Sequence record: PQ471516.1
DNA length: 64,000 nt
Source: Escherichia phage Turkey5
Strand: one strand, 5' to 3'
The notes under the pieces: generated by a model
Told to the model about the DNA's origin: nothing
The model's input: only the letters and a program-made list of their open reading frames with translations
Database searches by the model: none
In this document: in pieces, positions 42,911 to 44,923 of the stretch
How the letters are laid out: every line of letters begins with the position of its first letter
Numbering within the stretch: the first letter of the stretch is position 1
Translations under genes and position numbers: made by a program

Positions 42911-42943
42911 GTTTTATAATACGCGTATATTATAAATGAAGAG

Positions 42944-44170
42944 ATGAAAATGATTACATATCAAGAATTGAATGAAAAATGGATGAGAACACATCCAAAT
43001 CAAAAAGAACCTATATTTTATTTGAATGGTATTGAAAAAGAAATTAATGATAATAATTTAAATTATATCTTCATAGGTTTTAATATAAATTGTGTATCTG
43101 AATTTAATGGTGCAAAAACTAAATTAATTTTAAAATGTCCAAATCCAAAACATAAACAGTTTGAAAACTGCACCTATAATAATTTCACAAAACTTAATGA
43201 TGGTCGTCGATGTCCAGAATGTAGTAAAGAAATGGTTGCATCTTTACATCGAAATGATACAGAAACATTTAAAATTAATTCTTCTCATGTTCATAATAAT
43301 TTTTATGATTATAGTAAAACAACATATGGTAACAATGCACATGAAAAAGTAATAGTTACGTGTCCTATTCATGGTGATTTTAAAATTCGTCCAGCTAAAC
43401 ATTATAATGGTGCTCAAGGATGTTCTAAATGTGCAGAAGAAAAGCAATTATTAGATTCTAATGATGTAATTGAACGTATTAATATTATACATGATAATCA
43501 TTTTGAATTCACAAATTTTGAATATAAAGGTATTCATAAAAAATCTAAGATAATATGCAGCAGAACTGGACGAGAATATAAAACTACTCCTAATACATTA
43601 TTGCAAGGATATGGATGTAGATTTTGTCATCAACGTTCTGAACATACATTTGAATCATTTATTGATATGGCGAATGTGAAACATAATAATAAGTACTATT
43701 ATCATTTAGCAGAATTGCAATATGACGGGTTGAAAAAATATGTAGATGTATTGTGTTCAGAACATGGAATTTTCACAGTACTACCAACTAACCACATTCA
43801 TGGTAAAGCTACTGGATGTCCGAAATGTGCTGAATATGGGTATAATAGCAGTAAAGCTGGACATTTTTACATTCAAAAACTATCAAATAACAAAAATGAA
43901 ATAGTTGCGTATAAGTATGGAATTACTAAACGATTATCTGACCGTATCATTGAGCAACAGAATACTTCAATGTATAAGCATGAATATATATACCATGAAT
44001 ATTTTGAAGATGGTGAAATTCCACCTAAACTTGAAAGAATTGTTGAAGAAAATATCATTTGTTCATACTTATCAAAAGATGAGCTTGGTAATGGGTATAC
44101 TGAAACATATGAGCCTAAATATCATGAGAAAGTTTTAAATTTAATAAAAACTTTTTTAGATAAAAACTAA
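42944..44170 (+). CDS. Putative site-specific (homing-type) endonuclease: four zinc-ribbon repeats + C-terminal T5orf172/GIY-YIG-like domain
   Basis: Four ~30-aa repeats each ending G-C-x2-C (CPEC, CSKC, CRFC, CPKC); C-terminal GHFYI...YKYGIT core paralogous to ORF 44575..44883. Confidence 0.5.
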   Translation: MKMITYQELNEKWMRTHPNQKEPIFYLNGIEKEINDNNLNYIFIGFNINCVSEFNGAKTKLILKCPNPKHKQFENCTYNNFTKLNDGRRCPECSKEMVASLHRNDTETFKINSSHVHNNFYDYSKTTYGNNAHEKVIVTCPIHGDFKIRPAKHYNGAQGCSKCAEEKQLLDSNDVIERINIIHDNHFEFTNFEYKGIHKKSKIICSRTGREYKTTPNTLLQGYGCRFCHQRSEHTFESFIDMANVKHNNKYYYHLAELQYDGLKKYVDVLCSEHGIFTVLPTNHIHGKATGCPKCAEYGYNSSKAGHFYIQKLSNNKNEIVAYKYGITKRLSDRIIEQQNTSMYKHEYIYHEYFEDGEIPPKLERIVEENIICSYLSKDELGNGYTETYEPKYHEKVLNLIKTFLDKN

Positions 44171-44185
44171 AAGGAGTTGACAAGG

Positions 44186-44536
44186 ATGTTAACTGTATAC
44201 TTATTTCGCAAAGAAGAGTACTTAATGAGTCAGTACTCAAATATTGAGATTAATGTTCCATACGGCACGTATGTTGCTTATGATGAAGAAAGTGAAACAT
44301 TGCATTACTATGATGACAAATTAGATTATAGTACTGAAAAGTTTATTGAAGATGTACTAACCTGTAGTACTGAAGAAATGGTTTATGAAATCTATCTCCA
44401 GAAGTACAGAGAGCGTATGTCCAAGGTACATGCAGACGCACCAGTACTGAACATTAACCAGACTCCATCTGAATTCCAACCCACAAACCCATTCCAGCGT
44501 TTAATAGATGCTGGGGTAAATTTCCGAATTAGTTAG
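44186..44536 (+). CDS. Hypothetical protein
   Basis: RBS AAGGAG 9 nt before ATG 44186; acidic, no motif. Confidence 0.45.
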   Translation: MLTVYLFRKEEYLMSQYSNIEINVPYGTYVAYDEESETLHYYDDKLDYSTEKFIEDVLTCSTEEMVYEIYLQKYRERMSKVHADAPVLNINQTPSEFQPTNPFQRLIDAGVNFRIS

Positions 44537-44574
44537 ATGATAAATATCTTCATAATAAAATGGAGATATTTTCT

Positions 44575-44883
44575 ATGTCACAAATATGTTATGTAATAAC
44601 TAATGCTGCTTGGCCTGAGTATGTAAAGATTGGATTTACATCTAAATCAGAAATGACAGAAAGATTACGAACATACCAAACTGCAACCCCATTCCGTGAT
44701 TTTGAAGTGTATCATGAGGTTAAGTTCCCTGATGCTAGGGTTGCAGAGAAAGAGATTCATAAAAGACTAAAGCAGATGAATGCTACACGTCAGCCTAATA
44801 CTGAGTGGTTCAAGATGCCTAAGAAGCTGGCAGCTAATATAGTTGACTCTGTACTTGACGATATGGAGAACGATTTACTTTAG
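44575..44883 (+). CDS. Stand-alone T5orf172/GIY-YIG-like domain protein
   Basis: ICYVITN, PEYVKIGFTSKS, ERLRTY, EIHKRL, TEWFK pattern; RBS GGAGA before ATG 44575. Confidence 0.55.
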   Translation: MSQICYVITNAAWPEYVKIGFTSKSEMTERLRTYQTATPFRDFEVYHEVKFPDARVAEKEIHKRLKQMNATRQPNTEWFKMPKKLAANIVDSVLDDMENDLL

Positions 44884-44923
44884 TAATAAATATAGTATAT
44901 ATTAATCATAAAGGGATTTATAC

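Follow-up and report, generated by a model that had tools for sequence, protein, structure and literature searches.

What does a run of nuclease-like genes represent when it stands directly behind the major capsid gene of a jumbo phage? In a 64,000-nucleotide (nt) stretch of Escherichia phage Turkey5 (record PQ471516.1; this whole stretch is referred to below as the window), three open reading frames (ORFs) lie between the capsid and tail-fibre genes. A first reading, made from the letters alone and called here the sequence-only reading, had taken them for a single ~2-kb insert, recently acquired and acting as a selfish element or as a nuclease-based exclusion module of uncharacterised type. 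Our analysis points to a smaller element. It is likely that the island at ~42906-44170, which carries the first of the three genes, is a free-standing homing-endonuclease cassette of the T5orf172 family, placed between the capsid terminator and the next gene. The three predicted ORFs are all present, that is, a protein of 408 amino acids (aa), an acidic protein (116 or 119 aa rather than the 117 aa first given) and a free-standing T5orf172 protein:

42944-44170, + strand: ORF 1, 408 aa; its likely true start, giving 406 aa, is a second ATG at 42950, which has the better position behind GAAGAG
44177/44186-44536, + strand: ORF 2, 119 aa from a TTG, or 116 aa from the ATG used in annotated relatives
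44560-44883, + strand: ORF 3, 107 aa, or 102 aa from 44575, the start annotated in the related phages JNE01 and 121Q

Base composition

The GC content is 37.2% over the whole window, as compared with 23.1% in the intergenic segment 42836-42943 and 27.1% in the 408-aa gene. The latter is the 1227-nt segment of lowest GC content in the 64 kb (z = -4.2), the next lowest standing at 33.1%. The 116-aa and 107-aa genes are normal in this respect (35.9% and 37.3%). The ~2-kb AT-rich segment of the sequence-only reading is therefore real for ~1.35 kb (~42836-44185), comprising the spacer and the 408-aa gene, and does not extend to the two downstream genes. A strong AT bias is typical of mobile genes.

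Presence, absence and replacement among relatives

A megablast search of positions 41600-46700 against the GenBank phages returned 72 records, all of them RaK2-like jumbo myoviruses. The best match is Escherichia phage vB_EcoM_JNE01 (Asteriusvirus; 94.9% over the alignable 67%), followed by 121Q, PBECO4 and others at ~84%, and the source phage is, judged by these matches, an Asteriusvirus-like (121Q/PBECO4/RaK2-group) jumbo coliphage. All the matched relatives have in common the gene order prohead protease, scaffold, major capsid protein, variable stretch, tail fibre and DNA polymerase. The capsid gene (41660-42835, + strand) is T4 gp23-like (Pfam Gp23, 4e-90). Thirteen loci were compared in detail, and the insertion point begins at the following feature:

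42881-42912, + strand: capsid-gene intrinsic terminator, hairpin AAGGGACTCGCTTGACGAGTCCCTT with a T run behind it; it bounds the insertion point on the left

A homologous hairpin is present in all relatives, and in occupied genomes the similarity to the empty sites ends right after the T run. In PBECO4 and fEgEco12, the 116-aa gene starts ~50 nt after the capsid terminator, with no gene between. A 321-nt probe spanning the PBECO4 junction identified a contiguous (empty) site in 8 records, representing 7 phages (PBECO4, fEgEco12, CMSTMSU, SD-1, SD-2, SD-6 and SD-15), and an interrupted one in ~28 records, from ~27 phages, the break falling at probe position 168-171, directly after the terminator T run. 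Both states occur within one species, as PBECO4 (empty) and slurp01 (occupied) are classified together. The alleles found at this site encode proteins of 307-423 aa, and their identity to the Turkey5 allele runs from 99% (locus L007) and 69% (locus L008) through 50% (RaK2 ORF095 and 7t3) and ~35% (the 121Q/Turkey3/slurp01 type) down to 22% (JNE01). In the GenBank phage set, the 408-aa protein is at most 51% identical to anything. L007 is a metagenome sibling of the same phage and not an independent backbone, and its 99% allele is thus no evidence of recent transfer.

Compared across the capsid-fibre junction, as the sequence-only reading had proposed, the 408-aa gene is present, absent or replaced among relatives. 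Sporadic presence at a fixed site next to an essential gene is the distribution expected of a free-standing homing endonuclease. The idea of an acquired selfish element is thereby upheld for the 408-aa gene, which is AT-rich and has both empty sites and swapped alleles, and is not upheld for the 116-aa and 107-aa genes. Two other kinds of mobile element were considered and rejected. An intron-encoded homing endonuclease does not fit, as the gene is intergenic and follows a terminator, and no Rfam family matches within 41500-45200 at E <= 1 beyond two chance-level matches, so that no intron was found there. A transposon or insertion sequence does not fit either, as we found no direct or inverted repeats flanking the ends of the insert and no transposase domain in the Pfam search.

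The same interval has other occupants. In UE-S1 (L010:1628-3286) and ph0011 (L011:1679-3277), the post-terminator slot holds an unrelated 532-552-aa protein with a match to DUF7487 (1e-12 to 1e-13) and a sub-threshold match to REase_MTES_1575; it would seem that a nuclease-like mobile gene of another class has taken up this position. RaK2 ORF097 (L005:5636-6370; 244 aa, 26% GC) stands where the 107-aa T5orf172 gene would be, and 7t3 gp459 (L006:5100-5723) is an extra 207-aa gene in the capsid-fibre interval; neither has a Pfam match. Taken over the loci compared, the whole capsid-to-fibre interval is, by its gene content, an accessory-gene hotspot.

A zinc-module array joined to a divergent nuclease domain

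Two parts can be recognised in the 408-aa protein:

43136-43828, + strand: four zinc modules, a predicted DNA-recognition array (Pfam, alignment and predicted model)
43136-43222, + strand: zinc module 1, aa 65-93 (C65/H70...C90-x2-C93)
43361-43432, + strand: zinc module 2, aa 140-163 (C140/H143...C160-x2-C163)
43556-43627, + strand: zinc module 3, aa 205-228 (C205...C225-x2-C228)
43754-43828, + strand: zinc module 4, aa 271-295 (C271/H274...C292-x2-C295)
43850-44158, + strand: T5orf172-like (GIY-YIG superfamily) nuclease domain, C-terminal, aa ~303-405 (profile, fold and motifs)

The Cys/His columns of all four modules are invariant in the alignment of the protein with its relatives, and in the predicted model each module forms a beta-hairpin followed by a short helix. 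Four Cys modules had indeed been described at the outset, but as ~30-aa tandem units each ending in G-C-x2-C; the repeat period is in fact ~65-75 aa, around a Cys core of ~24-29 aa, and that ending is found in three of the four, module 1 ending in R-C-P-E-C. Three zinc-finger families exceed the Pfam cut-offs: the CapR homology domain (1.1e-10, 42 bits, aa 32-94), DUF723 (1.1e-08, 35.3 bits, in three stretches) and DUF4379 (1.3e-05, 25.7 bits).

The nuclease families score below their curated Pfam cut-offs over aa 306-367 (MUG113 19.9 bits against 22.3, T5orf172 12.9 against 20). The protein matches the PHROGs profile phrog_681, 'endonuclease', at 5.8e-68, a profile that the 107-aa T5orf172 protein also matches, in the same part. 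Its C-terminal 121 aa match the protein P0012 at 2e-25, and both P0012 and the JNE01 allele pass the T5orf172/MUG113 cut-offs. The AlphaFold2 model of aa 300-408 has a predicted local distance difference test score (pLDDT) of 84-96 and the order strand-strand-helix-strand-helix, and the best PDB matches of this predicted fold are GIY-YIG nucleases. The motifs FYIQ, YKYGIT, R333/R336, E364 and G-Y-T-E387-T-Y can be recognised, the conserved Tyr, Gly, Arg and Glu positions aligning with those of the 107-aa protein and of 150 T5orf172 relatives. In this sequence alignment, R333/R336, E364 and G-x-T-E387 fall in conserved columns, opposite the R and E-W-F positions of the 150 relatives. The Pfam GIY-YIG family itself gave no match to the protein at E <= 1, only the fold being in common, and a search of NCBIfam was uninformative for all three proteins. 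The profile searches proposed with the sequence-only reading thus recovered both the T5orf172/MUG113 and the zinc families, and its nuclease core stands as present but divergent: sub-threshold in Pfam, and supported by phrog_681, by relatives above the cut-offs and by the predicted fold. On this combined evidence of profiles and model, we read the 408-aa protein as an array of zinc fingers joined to a divergent nuclease of the T5orf172 type.

No paralogue of the gene was found within the window; a weak match at 59896-60987 was discarded as a gp32-like single-strand-binding protein with only a zinc-finger-like stretch in common. The ratio of nonsynonymous to synonymous substitution rates (dN/dS) of the 408-aa gene is 0.08 relative to L007 and 0.18 relative to L008, and lies between 0.10 and 0.25 among the 121Q-type alleles. 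Such low values indicate that the gene is maintained and not decaying.

A disturbed flank in the capsid gene

We compared Turkey5 and JNE01 along the locus. Upstream, the two differ at 4 positions in 2460 nt. Over the final 274 nt of the capsid gene they differ at 21 positions, all silent, and beyond it neither the spacer nor the nuclease gene is related between the two (22% aa identity). The sequences match again from the nuclease stop codon on, at ~98-100% up to ~45500, after which identity drops in a patchy manner into the fibre gene. On the two sides taken together, JNE01 is ~99-100% identical to Turkey5. Among the three genes, the two phages differ only in the first.

42562-42835, + strand: 3' end of the capsid gene, with 21 silent differences; candidate target region

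This segment is probably a co-conversion tract and a candidate target region. The pattern is what would be expected of a cassette exchange with co-conversion of the flank, although cleavage is not proven by it, and it agrees with the report that T5orf172 genes occupy boundaries of genetic exchange (PMC10448857). Within the tract, the block 42799-42814 (TAT TCT AAG..GCA ATT) is wholly or partly common to L007, L008 and 7t3, which also carry alleles of the Turkey5 type, and not to RaK2.

One might speculate further, and we put this forward tentatively as a possibility with the odds against it, that the post-terminator spacer is a landing pad, a site of long standing in RaK2-like jumbo phages of several genera, at which nuclease genes unrelated to one another do not merely invade empty sites but also oust each other. 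The Turkey5 allele would then have replaced, or have been replaced by, a JNE01-type allele in a genome identical in other respects, via a cut in the 3' end of the capsid gene, and the silent block 42799-42814 (TAC AGC to TAT TCT etc.) would be the self-immunity mark of the carrier. If this were true, the phage pair would be a clean natural system for the study of competition between homing endonuclease genes, and would show target-site evolution inside an essential, highly constrained gene.

Promoter and leader of the nuclease gene

Two features precede the start of the nuclease gene:

42892-42920, + strand: predicted near-consensus sigma-70-type promoter TTGACG-17-TATAAT, an 11/12 match, the best in the region
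42912-42935, no strand assigned: imperfect palindrome TTTTATAATACGCGTATATTATAA, which overlaps both the -10 element and the nuclease-gene leader

The -35 hexamer of the promoter lies inside the terminator hairpin, and the -10 element stops short of the ATG at 42944 by 23 nt and of that at 42950 by 29 nt. Equivalent promoters (10-12/12) precede the alleles in L007, 7t3, 121Q, Turkey3 (12/12), slurp01 and ph0011; both empty sites reach only 8/12. We infer that the nuclease gene is expressed early by the host polymerase, independently of the late capsid transcript. A T4-type late promoter was rejected for this gene, the sequence TATAAATG at 42927 being only 9-16 nt from the ATG. The exact T4-type late motif TATAAATA is found at 40397-40404 and 41607-41614, 46-49 nt upstream of the scaffold and capsid starts (46 nt in the case of the capsid gene); it is not enriched over the window (6 occurrences vs 6.4 expected).

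Sigma-70 sites matching at 11/12 or better number 10 in the 64 kb, with 8 on the + strand (1096, 4192, 4425, 10663, 17218, 20782, 33533 and 42892) and 2 on the - strand (23156 and 18472). With this 8:2 bias towards the coding strand, the ten sites are candidate early promoters of the phage.

The palindrome TTTTATAATACGCGTATATTATAA may be a putative operator, or a recombination joint common to the alleles. Nearly the same leader precedes the slurp01 allele, though the proteins are only 35% identical.

A palindrome on the gene's own promoter, a -35 element inside the capsid terminator and the capsid gene next door could also bring to mind a domesticated CapR-like regulator, tuning capsid transcription or termination and keeping a vestigial nuclease domain. 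The match to the CapR homology domain (1.1e-10) and the fact that CapR, derived from the same family, represses a capsid operon (PMC8096241) agree with such a role. We nevertheless consider it unlikely, as the nuclease domain is full-length, with conserved Arg and Glu positions, and under purifying selection, and the gene is dispensable, 7 relatives being without it. It is also swapped for alleles of 22-35% identity that would read different DNA, and so strong a bias towards AT is what mobile genes typically show.

The two downstream genes

The remaining two genes of the supposed insert have a different distribution:

44186-44536, + strand: 116-aa acidic protein, conserved; not part of the mobile element
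44560-44883, + strand: stand-alone T5orf172-domain protein, conserved; not part of the mobile element

All the Asteriusvirus genomes examined have both genes, those with an empty site among them. The 116-aa protein is 71-99% identical within Asteriusvirus, 49% to RaK2 ORF096 and 33% to 7t3 gp460, with a dN/dS of ~0.15-0.21 for its gene. It belongs to phrog_15724, a narrow, unannotated family with only 12 clusters in 5.8 billion. Its AlphaFold2 model (pLDDT 70) has weak SH3-like matches, which suggests an SH3-like barrel. The 107-aa protein has clear Pfam matches (T5orf172 5e-14, 53 bits; MUG113 8e-13) and is 81-100% identical across Asteriusvirus and 7t3, with saturated synonymous sites and a nonsynonymous rate (dN) of 0.07-0.15. 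Its orthologues (68-69%) in Erwinia and Yersinia jumbo phages lie ~600 nt behind the capsid genes, a distance which leaves room for the 116-aa gene and not for the nuclease cassette. Such stand-alone proteins are common in the T5orf172 family: among the 150 best relatives of the 107-aa protein, 42 have no more than 120 aa.

As phages with an empty site, and phages of other genera, also have the 116-aa and 107-aa genes, these are, on this comparative evidence, resident core genes outside the insert. This bears directly on the initial proposal of a recently acquired 2-kb module of three genes acting together as a selfish element or exclusion system, which we regard as extremely unlikely. The three ORFs are indeed adjacent and in the same orientation, without a terminator between them in the terminator scan, and two of them carry T5orf172-type domains. 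Moreover, PADLOC contains a candidate, PDC-S57, to which the 107-aa protein is similar (6e-17) over positions 4-92 of 212, in the N-terminal, T5orf172-domain part only. The PADLOC models gave no match for the 408-aa or the 116-aa protein, so that the only link to defence or exclusion is a domain-level match of the 107-aa protein. Against the module stand the empty-site phages, which keep both downstream genes, the normal GC content of these genes, the strong conservation of the 107-aa gene as a core gene across genera, and the comparison of Turkey5 with JNE01, which differ in the first gene only. Relatives carrying the same genes with normal composition had been named at the outset as what would refute the proposal, and for these two genes such relatives were found.

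Relative to 121Q, the synonymous rate (dS) is ~1.4 for the 116-aa gene and saturated for the 107-aa gene, vs ~0.4 for the capsid gene (41660-42835). This gap may reflect either a strong codon constraint on the capsid gene or a different, older history of the segment 44186-44883.

Further downstream, the C-terminal part (46050-46650) of the tail-fibre gene (44924-46642) is unrelated to that of JNE01, 121Q and PBECO4, and the 516-bp tail-fibre-assembly gene next to the fibre in these three phages is missing in Turkey5, where a gap extends to 46748. Turkey3 and WPEC5 have the Turkey5 version of the fibre end. In the Turkey5 fibre, aa 486-572 match Pfam Gp53-like_C. The fibre end is probably a second cassette swap relative to JNE01, one that would change host range.

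A probable homing cassette behind the capsid gene

Taken together, these data suggest the following course of events. Through the sigma-70-type promoter of the cassette itself, the nuclease gene would be transcribed by the host polymerase without reliance on the late capsid transcript. The four N-terminal zinc modules, arranged as beads on a string, would read a long DNA site, and the C-terminal T5orf172 domain would cut nearby; both steps are proposed because family members suggest them. In a mixed infection, a related genome without this allele would be cut by the enzyme, and the cut would most probably fall within the conserved 3' end of the capsid gene, within the terminator or close beside either. 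Recombinational repair would then copy the cassette together with up to ~270 nt of capsid flank, leaving the observed patch of silent differences. The 116-aa and 107-aa genes would take no part.

Several observations weigh against this account. Homing and cleavage by the 408-aa protein are read here from sequence, fold and literature. The patch of silent changes could be the product of ordinary mosaic recombination rather than of cut repair, and RaK2 combines a 50% allele with another codon pattern, so that the patch is not tied uniquely to allele lineage. Sigma-70-like matches are not enriched in the AT-rich region (26 vs 22.8 expected). No close copy of the Turkey5 allele was found on a clearly different backbone (an IMG/VR scan gave no close relatives), and recent mobility of this allele is thus unsupported by its distribution. 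Finally, zinc module 3 is without the His ligand present in the others.

The last point, together with the sub-threshold Pfam scores of the nuclease domain and the common decay of homing endonuclease genes after fixation, would suit an inactive relic of an old invasion, drifting to loss. This is very unlikely, given an intact ORF with a dN/dS of 0.08 (L007) and 0.18 (L008), conserved motif residues and an intact promoter.

A homing cassette restricted to the first gene explains the composition anomaly and separates a mobile gene from two adjacent core genes. It also assigns the 'hypothetical', 'endonuclease' and 'DUF4379' genes behind the capsid genes of 121Q/RaK2-like phages to the T5orf172 homing-endonuclease family. 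Turkey5 and JNE01, near-isogenic and with different alleles, offer a ready test of homing, replacement and co-conversion in jumbo phages, and modular zinc-finger arrays joined to a small nuclease domain have some interest as natural programmable cutters. The value of the finding lies mainly in annotation and comparative genomics, and the understanding of these elements is unchanged by it.

Comparison with known systems

In I-TevI and SegA-G of phage T4 the catalytic domain is N-terminal, an order opposite to that of the Turkey5 protein, and the DNA-binding modules differ; the DNA-binding part of I-TevI consists of a zinc finger followed by a helix-turn-helix. With its nuclease domain at the C-terminus and no Pfam GIY-YIG match, the Turkey5 protein falls outside the classical I-TevI/Seg type. 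The reversed domain order stressed in the sequence-only reading is, however, reversed relative to I-TevI only, and is the usual layout of T5orf172-family homing endonucleases (PMC10448857). Of 229 genes of that family, 200 (87%) encode zinc fingers of the CapR, DUF723 or DUF4379 type, in many cases as a series of 'beads on a string', and capsid genes occur in 31% of the gene neighbourhoods (PMC10448857). The Turkey5 protein has the features of this family: a terminal T5orf172 domain, the conserved Arg and Glu positions, and zinc modules on the other terminus.

The closest described counterparts are T5orf172-family homing endonucleases of Vibrio phage ICP1, Gp121, Gp165 and Gp174 among them, and of other phages (Barth, Dunham and Seed 2023, PMC10448857; Netter et al. 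2021, PMC8096241), which likewise have repeated N-terminal CapR/DUF723/DUF4379 zinc modules and a C-terminal T5orf172 domain. Their genes are likewise free-standing, intergenic, beside an essential capsid gene, sporadic and at an exchange boundary between relatives. The Turkey5 gene differs from them in its RaK2-like lineage and in a nuclease domain below the Pfam cut-offs, and is known here from sequence alone.

The origin-directed T5orf172 nuclease Odn (Gp88) of ICP1 cuts DNA in vitro, in dependence on a conserved Glu (PMC8263062). It resembles the Turkey5 protein in having an N-terminal DNA-binding domain, a C-terminal T5orf172 domain and conserved catalytic Arg and Glu, and differs in that its satellite-derived RepA_N domain makes it an anti-satellite weapon; the Turkey5 protein has zinc modules and no known satellite target. 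With the architecture described and a nuclease of the same domain order active in vitro, the 'uncharacterised type' of the sequence-only reading is not borne out. The shared domain order (PMC8263062), and a rapid turnover of alleles at one site that could mean an arms race, raise the question of whether the Turkey5 protein is itself a weaponised nuclease, kept to destroy a satellite or a co-infecting phage. This seems improbable to us: the zinc modules are of the homing-endonuclease type and there is no borrowed replication-initiator domain, no satellite or target is known, and the essential-gene neighbour, empty sites and disturbed flank make up the classical picture of homing, of which the cutting of a co-infecting relative is anyway the first step.

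The zinc finger of CapR binds DNA, and ICP1 relatives of CapR carry a C-terminal T5orf172 domain; CapR itself is a capsid-operon repressor derived from the T5orf172 family (PMC8096241). The PLE CapR is similar to the Turkey5 protein in its CapR-type zinc-finger domain and in its link to capsid genes. It differs in being satellite-encoded and in having lost the nuclease domain, which in the phage-encoded Turkey5 protein is complete.

At the same site, and with the same family assignment and domain order, stand RaK2 ORF095/K64-1 (408 aa), 7t3 gp458, 121Q gp604, slurp01 gp501 and JNE01 WOL22789, which are only 50, 50, 35, 35 and 22% identical to the Turkey5 protein, have three or four zinc modules in 307-408 aa, and are annotated as 'endonuclease', 'hypothetical' or 'DUF4379'. 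In length and in GC content (27.1%), the RaK2 allele equals that of Turkey5. Placed among these systems by its sequence, the 408-aa gene is best described as a new, divergent member of an already described class, in a hotspot of high turnover.

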